From: Klebsiella phage phi_KPN_H2
DNA length: 60,324 nucleotides
Sequence record: OQ267593.1
Strand: one strand, 5' to 3'
Both the position numbers and the translations under genes were made by a program. The notes beneath the pieces are model-generated. The model was not told where the DNA came from. It did no database searches and worked only from the letters and a program-made list of their open reading frames with translations. Position 1 is the first letter of the stretch; each line of letters starts with the position of its first letter. Positions 3,405-60,324 of the stretch are shown here, piece by piece.

Positions 3405-4318
3405 CGTTGAGCCTCCCCGCCCAGACCAGTTACAAGCTGTTTGATCAGCGACTGCAGTTCACCTGTCATCAGTGTAAAATCAGCGTCGAACCGCGCTAAC
3501 ACATCTTCATGATCGATATCGTCGTTCTGTTCAATCAGTTCGTCGCAGAACTTCAGGCGCGTTAAAATCGCATCATTAGTTAGTGTGAACGTGATCCGCT
3601 GTTGCCAGTCCAGCGCCAGTTTAGTAACAACTTTTCCGGCTTCGATGTGCGTTGCGATTTCATCGCTTACCAGATCCTGTTTCTTAACTTTCGCAATACC
3701 ACCATCAGCCAGGATCGCTTTCAGTTCCGCCGCATCACCGATCGCGAAGTAATCGCCAGGGACTTTACCGAGCTTGATCCATTCAGTCATCGTCAGTTCA
3801 ACAGGGTTTTCAATCGTGAGCGGGATAACCGGGAGGCTACCCAGACTTTTACGCAGCAGTGCAAGCGCGTCCTCTGCTTTACGAGCGCTGGACGCATCGA
3901 CAACAATCAACCCGTTCATAACATCGATCCACAACTGCGTACGGCTGTCTTTGGTAAATGCCCGTGGTAATAACGAATGCAACACTTCGTCTTTCAGGCT
4001 GTCTTTCTCTGTTTTCTTCAGCTTACGACCCTGTTCACTTTCCAGTTTAGCAATACGCGCATTCAGTTCCTGTTTAATAACCGGACCGGGCAGGATTTTT
4101 TCCTGACGTTGCACGGTTAACAGATACTGAGTGTGTGACCGATGCGCCAGGGTCTGGCTGAAAGCAGTCGCCGGAACCCATCCAGTGCGTGCCATATCGT
4201 TAGAACCGCACGGCGTAAACTGGAACGGCAACAACTGTTGTTCGATGGTTACCAGTTGTGCCATCAGCGACATAGGGTTACCGATGCGATAGATAATTGC
4301 ATTTTTGAAGAAGTTCAT
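3401..4318 (-). CDS. rdgC: recombination-associated protein RdgC homologue
   Basis: Recalled near-identity to E. coli RdgC along the full 305 aa (e.g. FTPCGSx[42 protein letters not shown], [15 protein letters not shown]). Confidence 0.85.
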
Positions 4319-52431: not shown

Positions 52432-52469
52432 AATAATTCTTGACGGATTACAAGGAAGTGATCCATACT
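52430..52469 (+). promoter_or_regulatory. conserved promoter element copy 9 (plus orientation): AAAATAATTCTTGACGGATTA, 18-nt spacer, CATACT
   Basis: -35 TTGACG at 52440-52445. Located upstream of the small-gene array that starts at 52500. Confidence 0.55.
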
Positions 52470-52499: not shown

Positions 52500-52709
52500 A
52501 TGGTTAACGTTAAGTGCATCAAAGATAACGAAGGTTACTGGACCGAAGGTGAAATTTATCAGGCTGAAACAGAACCGGGTGGTTTTTTAAGAATTGGTGA
52601 CGATAACGACAAAAATGCTGATTGGTGTTTAGTGCCATTATCATATGATGAAAATGAAAAAGCCACTTATTTATTAGCTGGCTTAGATGCTGAATTTATT
52701 GATCTATGA
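52500..52709 (+). CDS. hypothetical protein
   Basis: First gene after the + oriented conserved promoter at 52430-52469. Confidence 0.45.
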   Translation: MVNVKCIKDNEGYWTEGEIYQAETEPGGFLRIGDDNDKNADWCLVPLSYDENEKATYLLAGLDAEFIDL

Positions 52710-52933
52710 AACGTCGCCGTAAGCAGTATACATGCCGATGCAGCGCCTATGGTTTCCCACACCGTTTTAGTGGTGGGCGCTGTCAGGGGTTATGGTTGGT
52801 CGAACCTAATAATTATTGCCCCGCGTGTAATTTGCTTACTGGTTCTGGTTGCCAGGTTATTAACGGTGTTGAACACCCGCGCGAATGTCCGTTAGTTCAG
52901 GATTTTTGCACTTATCACGAGGTTAAATTATGA
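52706..52933 (+). CDS. cysteine-rich small protein (putative zinc-binding)
   Basis: Nine Cys in 75 aa. Confidence 0.4.
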   Translation: MKRRRKQYTCRCSAYGFPHRFSGGRCQGLWLVEPNNYCPACNLLTGSGCQVINGVEHPRECPLVQDFCTYHEVKL

Positions 52934-53142
52934 AGCCGCGTTATCGATTAATGAAATTATCAGAATGTGCGAACGGGACGCGATTTTATTTCTATCGTTC
53001 TAAATTGATGTGGCCTTATACGCTAATTGCTATCAATCGTAAGAAATACGAAGGTGTTTATCACATAGGGCATGGTTTTAATATTAACGTTCGGATGTTT
53101 AGAACATCGTTGAATACACAAGTTTGGGCTAAGGTGGATTAA
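52930..53142 (+). CDS. hypothetical protein
   Basis: 70-aa ORF with ATGA coupling. Confidence 0.4.
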   Translation: MKPRYRLMKLSECANGTRFYFYRSKLMWPYTLIAINRKKYEGVYHIGHGFNINVRMFRTSLNTQVWAKVD

Positions 53143-53400
53143 ATGGAATGGAAACGTATTAAACGAAGTTACGGATCGAACCCATTATATCTGTATTTGA
53201 ATAAACTTCATGTTGCTACAGTTTCATGGGATTTTGGGCATTCTAAAAATAACCCCAATACTCATCGTGCTAATGTGCATTTACCGGGTATGAAACAAGA
53301 ATTTTCTACTTCTACACACCCCAGTGAACAAATAGCAAAAGACGCTGTTGAAACTATTGTTAAACGCTGGGTAGATGCTGCCGGACTGGAGTTTAAATAA
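53143..53400 (+). CDS. hypothetical protein
   Basis: 85-aa ORF. Confidence 0.4.
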   Translation: MEWKRIKRSYGSNPLYLYLNKLHVATVSWDFGHSKNNPNTHRANVHLPGMKQEFSTSTHPSEQIAKDAVETIVKRWVDAAGLEFK

Positions 53401-53591
53401 TGAGTGGTCGTCGAACTCGTTCGTTACGCTGTAGCAAGTGTTATGAACAATACGGTTATAACGGTCTGGTCGAAGTTACTGGTGAGAACGGAAACGCTTT
53501 TACCTGCCGTTGTAAAACCTGTGGTCACACTTATCAAACAACATCAGCGGCTGCACGCCGTGCCTGGAGATATCGTGAAAAGAGAATTTGA
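53400..53591 (+). CDS. Ogr/Delta-like zinc-finger protein (candidate transcription activator)
   Basis: C-x2-C-x21-C-x-C-x2-C resembles the P2 Ogr C-x2-C-x22-C-x4-C finger. Confidence 0.35.
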   Translation: MSGRRTRSLRCSKCYEQYGYNGLVEVTGENGNAFTCRCKTCGHTYQTTSAAARRAWRYREKRI

Positions 53592-53598
53592 TCGTTAT

Positions 53599-54144
53599 GT
53601 GGTAATCAAGAATAGTCATGCAGAACAAGCACTAACCGATGATGAACGTAAAGAACTTTATCGGTTAGGTGTGAAGTGCGCAAAATGGCGTCGGGATAAC
53701 GGCAAAAAACCTTTCGAGTGTGTTGTAGTTGAACACGACTGGCCTGAATATGAACCTGTCTGGAAAGCGATTGAACAACGTGTTGATGGTCCACACCCTT
53801 TACCAGTAATGAATAAAGATGTTCGGTGTTTAGTTGACGCTATTAGTCAGGCAGCGTTAGCTGATGATATTTCTGCTGGTATATTTGGTCCTGTTTTTAG
53901 TCAGCTTATTTTCCAGTTAGCAGAAATAAAGCGCAAATCACAATTACTCGATCAGTTACGCGATCTGATGGGTTACGTTCAAAACGGAACAGATGGAATT
54001 ATCACTTTGTTCCAGGATGATGCTACTTTAACTTATTGGGTTACTCATCGAACAGCAGGTAAAAAAGAACATGACTGGCAAGAACATGCTGCATCACTAG
54101 AACAAGCTATTCGTAATGCGTATGATAAACATGGGGATAACTAA
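53599..54144 (+). CDS. hypothetical protein whose C-terminal domain is paralogous to 54979..55176
   Basis: The track ORF 53404..54144 overlaps the preceding gene. A GTG at 53599 is the proposed start. C-terminus LRDLMGYVQNGTDGIITLFQDD...YWV...LEQAIRNAYDKHG. Confidence 0.4.
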   Translation: MVIKNSHAEQALTDDERKELYRLGVKCAKWRRDNGKKPFECVVVEHDWPEYEPVWKAIEQRVDGPHPLPVMNKDVRCLVDAISQAALADDISAGIFGPVFSQLIFQLAEIKRKSQLLDQLRDLMGYVQNGTDGIITLFQDDATLTYWVTHRTAGKKEHDWQEHAASLEQAIRNAYDKHGDN

Positions 54145-54145
54145 G

Positions 54146-54307
54146 ATGCTTGAACGTATCGTTATTTCGATTATTTTTCTGATCTCCGTGGCGCTGGTTT
54201 CATCGAATCTGGCGTTTATTACTCAACAGTTCGTACTGGCTTTAACGGGCGTAATTGCAGCGTTAGCCAGTATCGCCGCGTGCATGTGGGGCGCTAAACA
54301 TGAATAA
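54146..54307 (+). CDS. small two-TM membrane protein
   Basis: MLERIVISIIFLISVALVSS...LTGVIAALASIAACMWGA. Confidence 0.4.
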   Translation: MLERIVISIIFLISVALVSSNLAFITQQFVLALTGVIAALASIAACMWGAKHE

Positions 54308-54992
54308 GGTAGTCTGGTCACTTTTCGACGGTTCCGGGATCATGGGTTTGCCGTGGGCTGAGGCTGGTTATCAGGTGTACTGTTTCAATGCGGATAAGGG
54401 TAATCACGGTGAATATAAAATTAAAATGTATCACCCTAACCTGCATTATGTTGATCAGTGGATTGATCCAGATTTTGCTATTAAACGTGAAATCCTCGGA
54501 ACGCCGTTACCGTCTATTATTTTTGGTTTCCCTGATTGCACGCTATTTGCTCAAAGTGGATCACAACATGAACGATCGCAGGGAGCGCTACAATACGCGC
54601 TAATGCTGGCAAAACTGATCCGTGAATTGGGTGAAAGATATAACGTACCGTGGATGATTGAAAACCCGGTGGGTGCTTTGTCACGACCAGAAATGATGGG
54701 TAAAGCAAATGCTTATTTTCATCCGTGGGAATATGGCGGTCATATGAGTATTGACGATCGACCATATCACCCAAAAATGCCGATGTTTGATGGGTATACG
54801 AAAAAAACATGTTTGTGGTTCGGCAATGGTTTTAAAATGCCTGAAAAGTGTCCGGGGCCGATTAACATTGGTTTCTTCTGGGGCTGGAAATTCCTCGGTG
54901 GTAACTCTACACGGACTAAGCAATTACGATCACTTACCCCACGGGGCTTTGCTCGTGCTGTGTTCAAGGCTAACCATCATGACGCATCTTGA
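54300..54992 (+). CDS. DNA (cytosine-5)-methyltransferase-like protein, minimal (no recognisable target-recognition domain)
   Basis: Motif I LFDGSGIMG, motif IV-like GFPDCTLFAQSG, motif VI-like IENPVGAL, distal GGNS. Only 230 aa. Confidence 0.45.
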   Translation: MNKVVWSLFDGSGIMGLPWAEAGYQVYCFNADKGNHGEYKIKMYHPNLHYVDQWIDPDFAIKREILGTPLPSIIFGFPDCTLFAQSGSQHERSQGALQYALMLAKLIRELGERYNVPWMIENPVGALSRPEMMGKANAYFHPWEYGGHMSIDDRPYHPKMPMFDGYTKKTCLWFGNGFKMPEKCPGPINIGFFWGWKFLGGNSTRTKQLRSLTPRGFARAVFKANHHDAS

Positions 54993-55176
54993 AAAATTAC
55001 GATCGCTGATGGGGTATTACCAGTCCGGTAGCGATCAGATAATCAGTCTTGCCCAGGATCCTCATACGGGGCTTTACTGGGTTAGTTGTAAACGTGCCTG
55101 GTATGAATGCGGCGCAACACTGGAAGCCGCGATTGATACCGCTTATGAAAAACATGGGGTGCCTTCTTATGAGTGA
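54979..55176 (+). CDS. small protein (65 aa) paralogous to the C-terminal domain of 53599..54144
   Basis: LRSLMGYYQSGSDQIISLAQDP...YWV...LEAAIDTAYEKHG aligns with the C-terminus of the upstream protein. Confidence 0.4.
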   Translation: MTHLEKLRSLMGYYQSGSDQIISLAQDPHTGLYWVSCKRAWYECGATLEAAIDTAYEKHGVPSYE

Positions 55177-55663
55177 ACAATACGTTTATCGATACAATGA
55201 TGTTAACCGGGTTGGTGATGGTCATGCACAGGTTCAGTTATTGCGCCGGGTGGTTATCAAAGAAACCGAACACTATGTATGGTCTGTTCCTGAACCTTTT
55301 GGGTGGAATGGTGTTCCGGGTGCATTAAGCGATCTCGGGTATTACTGGTCACATCCTAAGCGCAGTTATTATTATCCAAAGAAAACGAAAAAGAACGCGG
55401 ATCGGTCTGCCTGGCATATTACTAAAGAACAGGCAATGAAAGCATGGTTCATTCGTAAACAACACCAGTTAGCACGCCTCAGACTGGCGCTGGAACGCGT
55501 TGAACTCTGTGTGGAAGGTGTTAAAGCGCAGGGGGTGTTAGTTCCAGCCGGTTACGATAAAGTTGGTGATCCGTGGCAACCACTGCGTGTAAAACAAACA
55601 CCTGATAAGGTTGAATGTGGTGCTGGTCCGGTACTGTCTGAATATAGCTGGGTGGAGATCTGA
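55172..55663 (+). CDS. hypothetical protein
   Basis: The track ORF starts at 55049. The ATG at 55172 forms an ATGA overlap with the preceding gene. Confidence 0.4.
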   Translation, partial: SEQYVYRYNDVNRVGDGHAQVQLLRRVVIKETEHYVWSVPEPFGWNGVPGALSDLGYYWSHPKRSYYYPKKTKKNADRSAWHITKEQAMKAWFIRKQHQLARLRLALERVELCVEGVKAQGVLVPAGYDKVGDPWQPLRVKQTPDKVECGAGPVLSEYSWVEI

Positions 55664-55665
55664 TT

Positions 55666-55869
55666 ATGAATGTGGGGAATTTATATGTTTATCAACAAAC
55701 TGGTATTTTTGAAAAATGCTGTGTTTTAATAACACATCATAATCCTTGCGAGGGATTGATCATATGGGCAGACGGTGTAAAACAAAGATCTATGATTACA
55801 GATCAGGATTTCCGCAAATACAACGGGGAATTAGTCGGACGTAATGTAAAAATGAGGCCAACACTATGA
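55666..55869 (+). CDS. hypothetical protein
   Basis: 67-aa ORF. Confidence 0.4.
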   Translation: MNVGNLYVYQQTGIFEKCCVLITHHNPCEGLIIWADGVKQRSMITDQDFRKYNGELVGRNVKMRPTL

Positions 55870-56261
55870 TCGTAGTCGTCACAGGAGGTCGTGAATATAA
55901 CGATCAGGCTGCTATATTCAGTGCGTTATCAATACTACATGCGCAACACCCGATTACTGAACTGATCGAAGGTGAAGCGGCTGGTGTTGATTCAATCTGC
56001 CGTGAATGGGCGGAACGGCACGCGATCCCTGTTCGTCGTTGTCCGGCTGACTGGGGTAATCTTGACGTGCCGGGCGCGGTTATTAAACAGGGTAAGCACG
56101 GGGCATATAACGCCGTAGCTGGTCATCAGCGTAACCAATCCATGTTAGATAATGAACCACGTCCGACATATGGTGTTGTGTTCCCCGGTGGGCGTGGAAC
56201 GGCTGATATGCATCGTCGCATGTTGAAAGCTGGTTTAACTGTATGGGTGCCTTATGGTTGA
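55866..56261 (+). CDS. DUF2493 / SLOG-superfamily (LOG/DprA-like Rossmann) protein
   Basis: N-terminal VVVTGGREY... motif and a distal AGHQRNQ.ML motif. 131 aa. Confidence 0.5.
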   Translation: MIVVVTGGREYNDQAAIFSALSILHAQHPITELIEGEAAGVDSICREWAERHAIPVRRCPADWGNLDVPGAVIKQGKHGAYNAVAGHQRNQSMLDNEPRPTYGVVFPGGRGTADMHRRMLKAGLTVWVPYG

Positions 56262-56691
56262 TAGTTTTAGTGGTGAGTATCGCTGGTTAAGTAATTTCCA
56301 TCCGGTCACCGTAATTTATGACGGGTATGTTTTTAAAACTGTTGAACATGCTTACCAGGCACTTAAATGTAAATTTTATCAGGAGTTCCTGGAGGTTAAA
56401 AACTGTGAAACGCCGGGTCAGGCTAAACGTAGCGCTCGTCAAAAAGTAATGCGTGATGACTGGGATAAAGTTAAAATCCCGGTGATGTTTTATTTACTGC
56501 AGCAAAAATTTTCAGATCCTCATTTATGGTCTTTGCTCATTGCTACTGGTGATCAACCGATCGTTGAAGGTAACCAGTGGGGCGATACTTTCTGGGGTGT
56601 TTGTCGTGGTAAAGGTGAAAACCATTTAGGCAAAATGATTATGGCTATCCGAGCCGGGCAACAACACTACATTATTCAAAATAATTCTTGA
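56254..56691 (+). CDS. NADAR (YbiA-like) domain protein
   Basis: ...LSNFHP..., TVEHAYQALK, ...WD..., NHLGKMIMAIR align with E. coli YbiA motifs (SNF..P, TSEHYFQAQK, NRLGYLLMELR). Confidence 0.8.
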   Translation: MVDSFSGEYRWLSNFHPVTVIYDGYVFKTVEHAYQALKCKFYQEFLEVKNCETPGQAKRSARQKVMRDDWDKVKIPVMFYLLQQKFSDPHLWSLLIATGDQPIVEGNQWGDTFWGVCRGKGENHLGKMIMAIRAGQQHYIIQNNS

Positions 56692-56716
56692 CACATTGCA
56701 AACCCTCCACCATAAT
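56677..56716 (+). promoter_or_regulatory. conserved promoter element copy 10 (plus orientation): AAAATAATTCTTGACA, 17-nt spacer, CATAAT
   Basis: -35 TTGACA at 56688-56693 and -10 CATAAT at 56711-56716. A small 5' hairpin (CAGCCTCAG...CGAGGCTG) follows. Confidence 0.65.
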
Positions 56717-56750
56717 CAGCCTCAGTTAACCAACACGAGGCTGATAACCA

Positions 56751-57509
56751 ATGTCCAACATCCATTCACTACGCAAACTGTCAGAAGCCGACAAAGAAAA
56801 CGTAAAACGCGCCAACTCATTCATTATCGACCCGCGCATTATCCAGATTGAACCGGGTTTTAACCCGCGTGGCATGTTCACTGATAACTACTGGGAACAA
56901 CCGGATACCCTGGCGCACATCGAACAGTTCGTTAAAGCGTATCGCAACGGCGACTTCGTACCACCTATCGCGGTGAAAGTTATCGATGGTGTGCCGTTCG
57001 TGCGCGACGGTGAGCACCGCTTACGGGCGCTGCGTAAACTGATTGCTGAGGGTGTACCGTTCCAGCGTGTTGAAGTCGTTGAAGCGTCTGGTGACGAACT
57101 GGCGCAGGCTAAAACCAACTTTAACGCTAACAACGGTCGCCAGTGGTCAGCCGTCGAACGCGCTGTTCATTACGGACGGTTTAAATCCTACGGTATGACC
57201 GTTGAAGAGATCGCCCACGAGGTCGGTAAAACCGTACAGCATGTTTACCAGATGCTGACCATCCTTGAAATGCCGCTGGAAATGAAGCGCCGGATTCAGG
57301 AAGGGGCGATTAGCGCATCAGCCGCGATCAACCTGTTTAAAAACCCGGAACGCGCCACCGTTAAACGCCCTCCTGCAAAACTGATCCGTTCGGCTGTTGA
57401 AGCCATCCGTGGTGAATGGTCGGTCACACGGCAGGAAGGCGGTAAAGTTCTGGTTGAACTGACCGCTGAACAGTTCGAAGCACTGAAGGCACTGAAAGAC
57501 CATGAATAA
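56751..57509 (+). CDS. ParB-like nuclease domain protein
   Basis: ParB-box-like DGEHRLRA after IQIEPGFNPR. Preceded by the consensus promoter TTGACA-17-CATAAT. Confidence 0.65.
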   Translation: MSNIHSLRKLSEADKENVKRANSFIIDPRIIQIEPGFNPRGMFTDNYWEQPDTLAHIEQFVKAYRNGDFVPPIAVKVIDGVPFVRDGEHRLRALRKLIAEGVPFQRVEVVEASGDELAQAKTNFNANNGRQWSAVERAVHYGRFKSYGMTVEEIAHEVGKTVQHVYQMLTILEMPLEMKRRIQEGAISASAAINLFKNPERATVKRPPAKLIRSAVEAIRGEWSVTRQEGGKVLVELTAEQFEALKALKDHE

Positions 57510-57527
57510 AGTTGAGGAAAAATCAGA

Positions 57528-57821
57528 ATGACTATTGAAGACCAAATCGGAAAAGAATTAGCAGCAGAGGATGGCGGTGGTTTCGGCTTTGTCTGCATCT
57601 GGCGAGAAAAAGGAGATCCACTTGACGATGGGTCTGACCACGCTCGGCATTGCTCTGTAGGTGAATTTCTTTCCAGACCTGAAAACCAGAAAGGGAAGTG
57701 GCTCATCGATGGTGGCTGGGGTGGTCCTCCTGGGCCGATTCACGTTCAGTGGAACGAAGAAACCAACGAGTGGGAAAATGGTGGTTTTGGCGGGCATAGG
57801 TTTTCAAACGAGAGTAAATAA
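57528..57821 (+). CDS. glycine-rich hypothetical protein
   Basis: 97-aa ORF with a GAGGAAAA SD. Confidence 0.45.
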   Translation: MTIEDQIGKELAAEDGGGFGFVCIWREKGDPLDDGSDHARHCSVGEFLSRPENQKGKWLIDGGWGGPPGPIHVQWNEETNEWENGGFGGHRFSNESK

Positions 57822-57822
57822 C

Positions 57823-58182
57823 ATGACCAGAGAAGAACTGTTGAACATCATTGAAACCGATCAAGTTCAGTGTGGCGAGGCTGCTACACTGGCACGAATG
57901 GCGCTGGCGTTTTATGAGTGGCATGAAAAAACAGCGTGGGTGCAAACTGATAAGCGTTTTGGTGTTCTGAAGCCGTGGGGCAAGCATCGCGCGGATGTTC
58001 TGAAAGAATATATTGAACATCTGGAAAATCGTGTTGTGGAACTGCCGAAGTTAAAAATGCTCGAAGACTACCTCGCAGAAGTGGCTGTTGAAGAGAGAAA
58101 ACAGATTCTGGTCGGCGTGAAACTTGAATTTCATCGTGCGCTGGTTAATGTTGGCATTAAGATAGGGGTTGATCATGGGTAA
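57823..58182 (+). CDS. hypothetical protein
   Basis: Track ORF 57661..58182. Start moved to the Met just after the stop of the preceding gene. Confidence 0.4.
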   Translation: MTREELLNIIETDQVQCGEAATLARMALAFYEWHEKTAWVQTDKRFGVLKPWGKHRADVLKEYIEHLENRVVELPKLKMLEDYLAEVAVEERKQILVGVKLEFHRALVNVGIKIGVDHG

Positions 58183-58576
58183 ATTCAGAAAGGAAAAATT
58201 AAATCCGGTTGATGTTCTTCGCGATCAATTTGGCATCATGTGCGAGCACATCACGTATGACCCTGGCCTTAAAAAATCAGGATGTCATTTTCAGGTTATT
58301 CGTCAATGCTCGCATGATGGAACAATGCTGTTCACTACCGAACTATTGGCAGACACCTTGCTCGGCATTGCAAATATGCAGGCTTATCCGAAAAATCTTG
58401 CGCCTGAATTCGACAAACTTGTGGCGATAAAATATACCGTCGGCCCAATCTGGTTAAGCACCGTTTATGGGGTAGTGGACCTGCCACCTGGGTCATACCC
58501 AGGGGAGCGCCAGCGCACGCGTATGTGTGTTGTTTGCGAATACGTTTACGCGGATAAGACGCTGCAGGAGGACTAA
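58169..58576 (+). CDS. hypothetical protein
   Basis: 135-aa ORF. Confidence 0.45.
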   Translation: MIMGKFRKEKLNPVDVLRDQFGIMCEHITYDPGLKKSGCHFQVIRQCSHDGTMLFTTELLADTLLGIANMQAYPKNLAPEFDKLVAIKYTVGPIWLSTVYGVVDLPPGSYPGERQRTRMCVVCEYVYADKTLQED

Positions 58577-58578
58577 CC

Positions 58579-58737
58579 ATGTTAGAAAACAACCCTAACT
58601 ATTGCACGATGCAATGTAAGTCTAAATTCATACGGCTTACAGCAGACGAAGAAAAAGCCTGCAAAGGTCGTAATAGTTTCCCCAGCGTTAACGAAAATAA
58701 GTGGGTTAATAAGTTTATTAAGGACGGTAAGAAATGA
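58579..58737 (+). CDS. small hypothetical protein (52 aa)
   Basis: Fills the gap between neighbours and has an ATGA overlap with the next gene. Confidence 0.3.
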   Translation: MLENNPNYCTMQCKSKFIRLTADEEKACKGRNSFPSVNENKWVNKFIKDGKK

Positions 58738-58952
58738 AATATGAAAAACTCGACCAGATGATTTTAAATCGACTGTGTTCAGAACCGAAACCTTTCTGTG
58801 ACATTTTCACCGGGGATATTCTTGAAAAGTGCGAAGAATTATCCATTCATAAACATGAAGGTTTTCGCGTACTTGACCGCCGTTTACAGGCACTGCGTAA
58901 AAAAGGTTTAATTGTAAATATCAGTTCGTCTAAAGGGTGGATGAAACTATGA
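58734..58952 (+). CDS. hypothetical protein
   Basis: 72-aa ORF. Confidence 0.4.
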   Translation: MKYEKLDQMILNRLCSEPKPFCDIFTGDILEKCEELSIHKHEGFRVLDRRLQALRKKGLIVNISSSKGWMKL

Positions 58953-59242
58953 AATGGATCTCGTGGTTTCAACCAACAGAAGATTATCGCCCGGTCAGTT
59001 ACCCACCGACTGAGAAAGTTTTAGCGTGGTGGTGTACTGGTCATAGTGAAAACGGTGCCACACTTGTTGCTTTGGTTGATGTAGATGATCAGGAACAGGC
59101 GGAACACCACGTTAAACTGAACTGGCCTGAAGCGGAAAACTGGCGTTTCTGTGAAGATAAGAATGATAAAACTTTTGGCGATCGCTTTCCTCTCGAAGAC
59201 TGGATGATTGAACGTGGTTGTAGTTATAGGGAGGTATGCTGA
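58949..59242 (+). CDS. hypothetical protein
   Basis: The track ORF starts at 58937. The ATG at 58949 forms an ATGA overlap. Confidence 0.4.
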   Translation: MKWISWFQPTEDYRPVSYPPTEKVLAWWCTGHSENGATLVALVDVDDQEQAEHHVKLNWPEAENWRFCEDKNDKTFGDRFPLEDWMIERGCSYREVC

Positions 59243-59454
59243 TGAAACTGACATACGATCAACGACAAGCCTTAATCGGTAAATCGTTTGTATCAAAGAT
59301 GAATCACCCCGTTGAATCGAGCGTTACCGTACATGATGTTGAACGTTGCGGCGGTGGGTATACTGTTAAATTCACCAGACACGATCAGTGGGGAGGACTT
59401 ATTTATTGTGGTTTACAACGGTTCCTGAAACGTTTCCCACATGAGGTACGCTGA
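59236..59454 (+). CDS. hypothetical protein
   Basis: 72-aa ORF. Confidence 0.4.
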   Translation: MLMKLTYDQRQALIGKSFVSKMNHPVESSVTVHDVERCGGGYTVKFTRHDQWGGLIYCGLQRFLKRFPHEVR

Positions 59455-59687
59455 TGAAACGCTATGAGTTTTGGTTCTGTCATAACATGATGTATAACGC
59501 ACAAACCATTAAGCGGATACGGTGGTATAACCGCTGGTTTATTTCGATGGGGTGTATAGTGATCGATAAAGTAAAAGGCAATGCAATTTTTAGTGGATGG
59601 GATACGCCGGAAATTGCATTTAAAGAGGCGAAAAAAGAATTTGAACGCCGTGGTTTATACGAACATGTCATGGGTAAACGTATATGA
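59454..59687 (+). CDS. hypothetical protein
   Basis: 77-aa ORF. Confidence 0.4.
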   Translation: MKRYEFWFCHNMMYNAQTIKRIRWYNRWFISMGCIVIDKVKGNAIFSGWDTPEIAFKEAKKEFERRGLYEHVMGKRI

Positions 59688-59914
59688 AAATTAAAAACAT
59701 GGCTGCGTCTGGCCTGTCAGGTCGTATCTTTTACGGTACGATGGAAACCAGTAATGGTGGTCAGTCCGGGCGCTGGTTAGCCGGGAAACAGGACGTTACT
59801 GATATGGCGATCAAAGCCGTTGCTGAACACTGCTATCAGACGGGTAATAGTTACAGTTGCCAACTCGTTACCGGGGAGACTCTTACGTTATCAGTTGAGG
59901 TGAGCAGACCATGA
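59684..59914 (+). CDS. hypothetical protein
   Basis: 76-aa ORF. Confidence 0.4.
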   Translation: MKIKNMAASGLSGRIFYGTMETSNGGQSGRWLAGKQDVTDMAIKAVAEHCYQTGNSYSCQLVTGETLTLSVEVSRP

Positions 59915-60052
59915 AAATTAAACTGCCCGGTTGGTGGGTTTCTGTAAGCTGGCAACCTACTAAAAACTGGGGTTACTTTTACTTCTGGCATGACCAACCG
60001 CTTCGCGCATTCTGGATCGGTCATATCGTAATCGAATGGTGGTGGCGATGAG
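59911..60052 (+). CDS. small Trp-rich hypothetical protein (47 aa)
   Basis: ATGA-coupled on both sides. Too short for the ORF track. Confidence 0.3.
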
Positions 60053-60324
60053 TCTATTTCAATGTGAAAATTGTGGGTGTGTTGAAAACACAGCGCTTTC
60101 AGCCCAGGGTTTTACAAACTCGTTTCAGGCGTTGTTTGACTGGTCGTATGCCCAAAACCGTGCGGGTAAACGGTTGTGTTCCGCGTGTGGGCCTGTTAAA
60201 TATCGTGATGGTAATCCGACACCATATGGTAAATGGCATAACGTATTTGCTCGCCAGTATTTACAGTTAGGTAAGTTTAAAACAAACAGTCAGGGTAATC
60301 TGCAACATATTGAAACAGGTGATA
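60048..60324 (+). CDS. 5' portion of the zinc-ribbon gene that continues at 3..170 (wraps across the window ends)
   Basis: ATG at 60048. The frame stays open to the window end and continues in phase at the window start. Confidence 0.5.
   Translation, partial: MSLFQCENCGCVENTALSAQGFTNSFQALFDWSYAQNRAGKRLCSACGPVKYRDGNPTPYGKWHNVFARQYLQLGKFKTNSQGNLQHIETGD
60205..60324. repeat. exact 120-bp terminal redundancy (identical to 1..120)
   Basis: Base-by-base comparison. Confidence 0.95.

Follow-up and report, generated by a model that had tools for sequence, protein, structure and literature searches.

The locus considered here raises the question of what two overlapping genes, one for a SLOG-fold protein and one for a NADAR protein, do in the lytic Klebsiella siphophage phi_KPN_H2, and whether the gene for a ParB-like protein that follows them belongs to the same unit. 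All positions refer to the whole stretch of 60,324 nucleotides (nts) in sequence record OQ267593.1, hereafter the window. An initial annotation had regarded the three genes as one counter-defense module, and the three open reading frames (ORFs) were found exactly where it had placed them, on the + strand at 55866-56261 (SLOG, 131 amino acids), 56254-56691 (NADAR, 145 amino acids) and 56751-57509 (ParB, 252 amino acids). Profile searches, together with a structure search for NADAR, kept the first two proteins in the families proposed for them. The reading that we favor, with modest confidence, is that SLOG followed by NADAR ends an early or middle operon, NADAR being a counter-defense enzyme of the AdfN/NADAR-Bas32 type and SLOG a co-translated helper.

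The NADAR protein matched PF08719 well above the gathering threshold (E = 6 × 10-21, 75.8 bits versus 35.1). When its AlphaFold2 model (predicted local distance difference test score, 94.2) was searched with Foldseek, two solved structures were recovered and nothing beyond them, namely E. coli YbiA (2B3W; template modeling (TM) score 0.80, E = 4 × 10-9, aligned at 31% identity) and the P. nicotianae NADAR-ADP-ribose complex (8BAU; TM score 0.74). The model has the α-helical core fold of YbiA. YbiA 2B3W was also matched at the sequence level (E = 3 × 10-14), in an alignment that begins at residue 4 of the phage protein. The homologues number more than 2,500, and many of the closest are 135-150 amino acids long with approximately 50-60% identity; E31, H32, K38, E105, W109, D111 and W114 were invariant across 25 aligned members. 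Catalytic NADAR proteins are recognized by a Glu and a Lys in an EHxxQxxK helix and by an acidic or His residue in the last strand, and this last-strand residue is Glu in the YbiA subfamily, Asp in the DarT1-linked subfamily and His in the T4-type subfamily (PMC11543638). E31, K38 and E105 correspond to the catalytic Glu/Lys pair and the last-strand acidic residue, which are intact in the phage protein.

The protein also aligned over residues 2-134 with bas33_0070 of phage HildyBeyeler (Bas33), with 45% identity (E = 5 × 10-41). The Bas33 genome encodes NADAR-Bas32, with identical sequence, as bas33_0070, and the Bas33 copy was used for this comparison. NADAR-Bas32 by itself restores phage growth on DarTG1 and neutralizes DarT1 (PMC11257639), and all the NADAR subtypes tested hydrolyze guanine-ADP-ribose in vitro (PMC11125620). 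Since the catalytic residues are intact and the identity to NADAR-Bas32 is 45%, removal of ADP-ribose from DNA guanine is the most likely function, and the proposal in the initial annotation that the protein reverses DarT-type guanine ADP-ribosylation is the best-supported reading of the gene. NADAR is therefore predicted to be a DNA-guanine ADP-ribosylglycohydrolase and an accessory counter-defense gene; we infer both its substrate and the host system that it would counter. A search of the literature on DarTG in Klebsiella yielded nothing decisive.

In the mechanism that we propose, a host DarT1-type or other guanine-directed ADP-ribosyltransferase would tag N2 of guanine in the single-stranded DNA of the phage, NADAR would hydrolyze the N-glycosidic bond between ADP-ribose and guanine N2 in this DNA, and replication would continue once the tag is removed. 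SLOG would be a helper with an independent function of its own. One possibility is that it binds or processes an adenine-ribose ligand, such as the released ADP-ribose or a derivative; alternatively, it may bind single-stranded DNA at the replication forks where NADAR must act.

The SLOG protein scored 75.9 bits (E = 2 × 10-21, cut-off 28.2) with PF10686, the YAcAr family formerly called DUF2493, and falls within the Rossmannoid SLOG superfamily. An alignment of 39 homologues showed invariant R9, G36, G40, D42, R89, N90, G111 and M115, in the conserved motifs GGR, GxAxGxD, AGxxRN and PGGxGTADM. LOG proteins occur among the structural matches of SLOG, but the LOG motif PGGxGTxxE reads PGGRGTADM here, and the position of the catalytic Glu is Met115 in all the 39 sequences. 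Because an invariant Met replaces the catalytic Glu, SLOG is not a LOG-type hydrolase, and it is predicted to be a Rossmannoid protein that binds nucleotides. Three of its motifs, GGR, GxAxGxD and RN, are presumably DprA-like. Identity with DprA itself, which loads RecA on single-stranded DNA, was rejected, as the protein is a single domain of 131 amino acids without the flanking SAM and DML1 domains. A sequence search of PDB chains found no solved relative, the profile search giving only a marginal match to 3IMK (E = 0.011) and spurious matches to ribosomal protein S3.

Members of PF10686 are present in 761 of 50,697 phage records, including those of Kuttervirus, Klebsiella phages and mycobacteriophages, under labels such as 'GTP-binding domain', 'DprA-like' and 'D29 gp61'. 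The family gene adjoins the DNA polymerase gene in the Klebsiella phages JustaPhage and BUCT791, and a DUF2493 domain is fused to a superfamily 1B (SF1B) helicase as the C-terminal domain of ICP1 HelB (bioRxiv 10.1101/671271). Literature searches found no experimental characterization of DUF2493/YAcAr. The phi_KPN_H2 protein is a high-scoring member of this family, which is widespread in lytic phages and includes gp61 of mycobacteriophage D29; it carries a β-hairpin insert at residues ~64-84 (NLDVPGAVIKQGKHGAYNAVAGH), which is present only in a subset of the family. Neither the isoelectric point nor the net charge of homologues of SLOG and NADAR was informative as to DNA binding.

The last 8 nts of SLOG are also the first 8 of NADAR (ATGGTTGA, 56254-56261, + strand), so that stop and start overlap. 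The overlap was read directly in the sequence and suggests translational coupling of the two genes, as the initial annotation had claimed. Our survey covered the viral surroundings of NADAR relatives (80 loci) and of SLOG relatives (80 loci), in which genes were called, clustered and scanned with profiles. By clustering, SLOG lay within three genes of NADAR in 11 of the 80 NADAR loci and the next commonest cluster in 3; hidden Markov model searches placed SLOG in 8-9 of these loci, and Pfam ranked it as the top immediate-neighbor family, above ResIII, NAD synthase and DUF4326. SLOG invariably shared the strand of NADAR, preceded or followed it, and often overlapped it (by 4, 8 or 32 nts), and the flanks were otherwise unrelated; the SLOG proteins adjacent to NADAR were scattered across the SLOG tree. 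The SLOG-NADAR linkage is real and recurrent in this survey.

The same arrangement was found in a distant contig (Logan SRR33471211, contig L165), where SLOG and NADAR are 57% and 64% identical to those of phi_KPN_H2 and the 8-nt overlap is kept; the 8-nt overlap is also present in L003/L015. The pair in L165 (5459-7500) lies between genes for HD_4, an HD hydrolase of the RelA/SpoT type, and Nmad5, a nucleotide-modification-associated protein, which suggests a small island of nucleotide-centered accessory genes. These two flanks were compared with the 204-amino-acid ORF and the ParB gene of the window as possible homologues and are not homologous to them.

From the NADAR side, the recurring unit is the SLOG-NADAR pair, and ParB is outside the pair. 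ParB was found near SLOG in 7 of the 80 SLOG loci, and the inspected ones were all close relatives of phi_KPN_H2; outside this lineage, no recurrence of ParB near NADAR was seen in the surveyed loci. Likewise, the methyltransferase and ParB were neighbors of SLOG only within this phage lineage. The three-gene module of the initial annotation therefore does not hold, given that ParB stands under a promoter of its own, that its link to SLOG is limited to the lineage, and that HD_4 and Nmad5 flank the pair in L165.

Within the lineage, the relatives KP13-27, Carvaje, Kpn BU9 and VLCpiS10a are approximately 90% identical to the window in this region, Sashavirus is more distant, and E. coli genomes gave no near match. 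The shared backbone consists of the methyltransferase, a small ORF, SLOG and ParB, with NADAR and an HNH gene as optional members between the last two. Among relatives with SLOG at least 78% identical, NADAR and HNH occur in this slot between SLOG and ParB singly, together or not at all, with clean indel edges, and NADAR was present in 4 of 10 close-relative genomes. In BU9 the SLOG stop runs directly into the HNH gene, which the window lacks, and the same promoter sequence stands downstream of HNH. The 3′ end of the HNH gene in BU9 has its counterpart in the last NADAR codons (IIQNNS*) and the -35 box embedded in them (window 56668-56716, BU9 3720-3770). This tail is shared by whichever cassette lies upstream, and the slot therefore resembles a cassette site. 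Within this variable slot NADAR is gained and lost as a cassette, an accessory pattern that is typical of anti-defense genes; SLOG, in contrast, is a core gene of the lineage and clearly also works without NADAR. In the NADAR orthologue of KP13-27 (OP617744, 4305-4733), codon 11 is an in-frame TAG stop instead of W, and the deposited annotation starts downstream, giving 113 amino acids; this orthologue is either a pseudogene or the product of a sequencing error.

Inspection of three further Klebsiella phages, phi_270, e270.1 and e270.2 (OR148034/36/37), revealed natural loss of the whole locus. These phages are 100% identical to the window over 20001-45000 and lack window positions 55223-60212, a deletion of 4,990 bp, with 100% identity in the compared stretches. 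An 8-bp direct repeat (GTGATGGT, 55215-55222 and 60205-60212) contains the junction and indicates a microhomology-mediated deletion. The block edged by the repeats (55215-60212) holds SLOG, NADAR, ParB and 11 small ORFs, for which PHROG scans gave only matches of 'unknown function', and three deposited phages without the block that holds all three genes are new in this analysis. Relatives are colinear across both junctions, so the window represents the ancestral arrangement. Because the block is gone from otherwise identical phages, it is probably dispensable for propagation, which fits conditionally useful genes. The deletion must be read with the caveat that position 1 of the window falls exactly on the right deletion junction. 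Positions 1-120 are repeated at 60205-60324, leaving 60,204 unique bases, and this end repeat means that the contig is either circular or terminally redundant; the coincidence of contig start and junction may stem from a branch in the assembly graph, with full-length genomes and genomes carrying the deletion present together in the population. A literature search for phi_270/e270 found no paper. A tRNA-Ser is annotated in e270.1 and e270.2 inside the equivalent of window 20001-45000.

Several observations weigh against a counter-defense NADAR with a SLOG helper. Seen from the SLOG side, NADAR was near in only 2 of the 80 viral SLOG loci, and approximately 90% of the NADAR loci were without SLOG; the partnership of SLOG is statistical only; NADAR-Bas32 has no SLOG neighbor and works alone. 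The binomial probability of at least 8 SLOG neighbors in 80 loci at a generous background of 0.5% was 8 × 10-9, which speaks for the linkage, but this value was calculated from loci uncorrected for phylogeny. E. coli YbiA and T4 gp30.3 did not rescue DarT1 toxicity in one study (PMC11125620), and activity in vitro is no guarantee of protection in vivo. In addition, the phage protein is of the Glu type, like YbiA, and with TIGR02464, the riboflavin-intermediate N-glycosidase family, it scored 71.2 bits, just below the cut-off of 73.7.

The survey counts from the SLOG side are what one would expect if the two genes were independent neighbors, NADAR being a stand-alone counter-defense cassette in a recombination-prone slot and SLOG, functionally unconnected with it, a DprA-like accessory of DNA metabolism comparable to D29 gp61 and the C-terminal domain of ICP1 HelB. 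The usual neighbors of SLOG in the 80 SLOG loci were genes for superfamily 2 (SF2) helicase, DNA polymerase, sigma factor and dCMP deaminase, and the polymerase neighbor in JustaPhage and BUCT791, the helicase fusion in ICP1, the presumably DprA-like motifs, the use of the same slot by an HNH homing endonuclease and the sufficiency of NADAR-Bas32 (PMC11257639) all agree with this explanation. However, it leaves the strong enrichment of tight, same-strand and often overlapping SLOG-NADAR adjacency, in both orders and in unrelated contexts, without a reason; the pair and its 8-nt overlap were kept in L165 while the flanks changed, and SLOG-NADAR fusions are reported in jumbo phages (PMC7824862). 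We regard independence as a possible, if unlikely, explanation. At the opposite extreme, SLOG would be a genuine partner of NADAR, as an enzyme or a targeting factor, in a two-component de-ADP-ribosylation module; it would either recognize ADP-ribosylated single-stranded DNA at forks or act on the adduct or on ADP-ribose after its release, cleaving the adenine-ribose bond. To this tighter partnership we assign a rather low probability. If it were true, a wider range of ADP-ribosylating or NAD-derived host defenses would be neutralized, and a first function would be given to a family that matches ~1.5% of deposited phage genome records.

The pair might instead act on small molecules. According to the model of Iyer, Burroughs and Aravind, SLOG and NADAR would cleave ribosyl linkages in small ADP-ribose derivatives, such as cyclic ADP-ribose isomers and ADP-ribose conjugates from TIR, Thoeris-like or other NAD-consuming defenses, so that immune signaling is blunted rather than DNA repaired. 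Signal-sensing SLOG proteins of the ThsA type, in Thoeris, bind gcADPR and are fused to an effector such as SIR2. This was predicted in PMC9503650 and PMC7824862, the SLOG family is described as related to YspA/cpYpsA, in line with the weak 3IMK profile match, and DUF4326 and NAD synthase are among the immediate neighbors of NADAR in viral loci. Nevertheless, each phage NADAR tested to date acts on guanine-ADP-ribose in DNA (PMC11257639, PMC11125620), literature searches found no phage SLOG with such a signal-degrading activity, and SLOG stands mostly among replication genes without an ADP-ribose-processing partner. We consider it improbable that degradation of signals or toxins is the function of the pair, and the role against Thoeris- or CBASS-like signaling that the initial annotation had suggested gained no specific support here. 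A housekeeping role is very improbable. It would make NADAR a YbiA-like N-glycosidase of reactive riboflavin-pathway intermediates and SLOG a nucleotide phosphoribohydrolase resembling LOG and PpnN, the two tuning nucleotide pools during infection, and the near-threshold TIGR02464 score, the YbiA-like Glu, the LOG proteins among the structural matches of SLOG and the name 'ribA/ribD-fused' given to NADAR homologues in source databases are consistent with it. Yet the TIGR02464 score remains under the curated cut-off, the annotation of the relative BU9 shows no rib genes, the LOG catalytic Glu is an invariant Met in the SLOG family, NADAR is nearer to NADAR-Bas32 than to YbiA in sequence, and gain, loss and dispensability suit conflict genes better.

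A counter-defense NADAR with a co-translated SLOG helper, which remains our preferred reading, was then compared with known systems. The orphan NADAR proteins of phages comprise AdfN (T4 gp30.3), NADAR-Bas32 (Bas32/33, T5-like) and NADAR-Bas60 (Johannesman, Carlson & LeRoux 2024, PMC11257639). Like these, the phi_KPN_H2 protein is a small stand-alone NADAR whose gene lies in the non-structural region of a lytic phage. In the alignment with bas33_0070, the catalytic Glu/Lys and the last-strand acidic residue are conserved, and the YbiA core is not extended at the N terminus, which is also the case in NADAR-Bas32. The protein differs from the T4-type proteins, which have His (PMC11543638), in being of the Glu type, and from the Bas33 case in its translational coupling to a SLOG gene and its Klebsiella host. 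With DarG1, the NADAR antitoxin of DarTG1 (Schuller et al. 2023, PMC11543638), it shares the superfamily and presumably the hydrolysis of guanine-N2-ADP-ribose; unlike DarG1, it has no adjacent DarT toxin and no basic N-terminal extension, and its last-strand residue is Glu105 instead of Asp. Pfam, PHROG and PADLOC scans found no ADP-ribosyltransferase near NADAR, the neighbors being the methyltransferase, two ORFs without assigned function, SLOG and ParB. E. coli YbiA is the best match among solved structures and has the same 'naked' fold and last-strand Glu; the phage protein is distinguished from YbiA and TIGR02464 by its score below the cut-off, its accessory phage context without rib genes and its closer sequence relation to NADAR-Bas32. 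It fell far short of the NCBIfam model NF053876, 'DS32_2 NADAR anti-phage protein' (53 against a cut-off of 240), and PADLOC gave no match for SLOG, NADAR or ParB.

ADP-ribose-processing neighborhoods and fusions that combine SLOG with Macro or NADAR and DUF4326 in phages were predicted computationally by Iyer, Burroughs, Aravind and co-workers (PMC7824862, PMC9503650). The phi_KPN_H2 locus resembles these in the linkage of a YAcAr-type SLOG to NADAR, and our survey independently recovered SLOG as the top neighbor, and also DUF4326. Unlike them, it consists of two separate overlapping genes in a mid-sized siphophage, not of a jumbo-phage fusion, and has no Macro, Nudix or DUF4326 partner. The initial annotation had held such a pairing to be an uncharacterized anti-defense system, a claim made outdated by the description of AdfN in 2024 and by these computational reports. 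Counter-defense by phage NADAR is published (PMC11257639) and confirmed by transposon sequencing (bioRxiv 10.1101/2025.11.20.689424), as is NADAR biochemistry (PMC11543638, PMC11125620), and the locus is a new example of a known counter-defense strategy, not a new system.

The example would extend phage NADAR counter-defense to Klebsiella siphophages that are candidates for phage therapy, and the presence or absence of the NADAR cassette could alter host range on strains of the DarTG1 type. The full-length genome and the phi_270/e270 deletion variants form a convenient natural pair for experiments, and the recurrent coupled pairing of SLOG and NADAR offers a concrete and cheap route to the function of DUF2493/YAcAr.

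We next describe the ParB gene and the promoters that delimit the locus. The ParB protein (56751-57509) has an N-terminal ParB domain and a helix-turn-helix (HTH) domain, the latter matching HTH_ParB (PF17762, E = 5 × 10-8, 33.4 bits versus a cut-off of 22.6), and the protein matched phrog_1033, 'ParB-like partition protein', with E = 4 × 10-53. It aligned with Spo0J/Noc across residues 52-200 (Spo0J 1VZ0, E = 1.4 × 10-5), its GEHRLRA box corresponding to the GERRxRA region of Spo0J. Unlike Spo0J, the ENLQR-box region is degenerate, TIGR00180 gave 37.8 bits, under the cut-off of 58.45, and no parS or partition context was identified. The description 'ParB-like nuclease' was thus correct as to ParB, from HTH_ParB and phrog_1033, but 'nuclease' is a legacy Pfam label, and no sign of nuclease activity was found.

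Ahead of ParB and the small ORFs downstream of it, which it would drive, and covering the NADAR stop codon, lies a promoter copy (AATTCTTGACACATTGCA...CATAAT, 56683-56716, + strand) whose core, TTGACA-17-CATAAT at 56688-56716, matches sigma-70 at 11 of 12 positions. This is the best match in the window, so the promoter is as strong as the initial annotation had stated, while the coordinate given for it, 56677, is off by a few bases. A narrow scan for TTGACA-N17-CATAAT gave this one site, and a wider scan disclosed a family with the motif AATTCTTGACRSATTRCA, of which 10 copies are present in the window versus 0.04 expected by chance. The copies start at 2982, 5611, 7734, 10756, 12682, 14199, 18099 and 46439 on the - strand and at 52435 and 56683 on the + strand, the motif in the ParB promoter covering 56683-56700. 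Judged from the motif, this is probably the phage's own family of sigma-70-type promoters, delimiting transcription units. Genes from 52500 to 56691, including those for a Dcm-like methyltransferase, SLOG and NADAR, are arranged head-to-tail on the + strand, and because the only other + strand promoter copy there is at 52435 (52435-52469, the probable start of the unit), 52500-56691 looks like one transcription unit, with ParB heading the next.

Directly upstream of SLOG in the same operon are a 67-amino-acid ORF (55666-55869), whose stop overlaps the SLOG start as ATGA at 55866-55869, and before it a 204-amino-acid ORF (55049-55663) with a weak match to phrog_1636 and a doubtful TTG start. 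The presence of both ORFs varies among relatives, and the longer one is cut by the phi_270 deletion. The annotation of BU9 (OR145793, 42087-43980 and elsewhere) lists several DNA methyltransferases, a nucleoside 2-deoxyribosyltransferase and a dUTPase, and the lineage invests heavily in genes for DNA modification and nucleotides.

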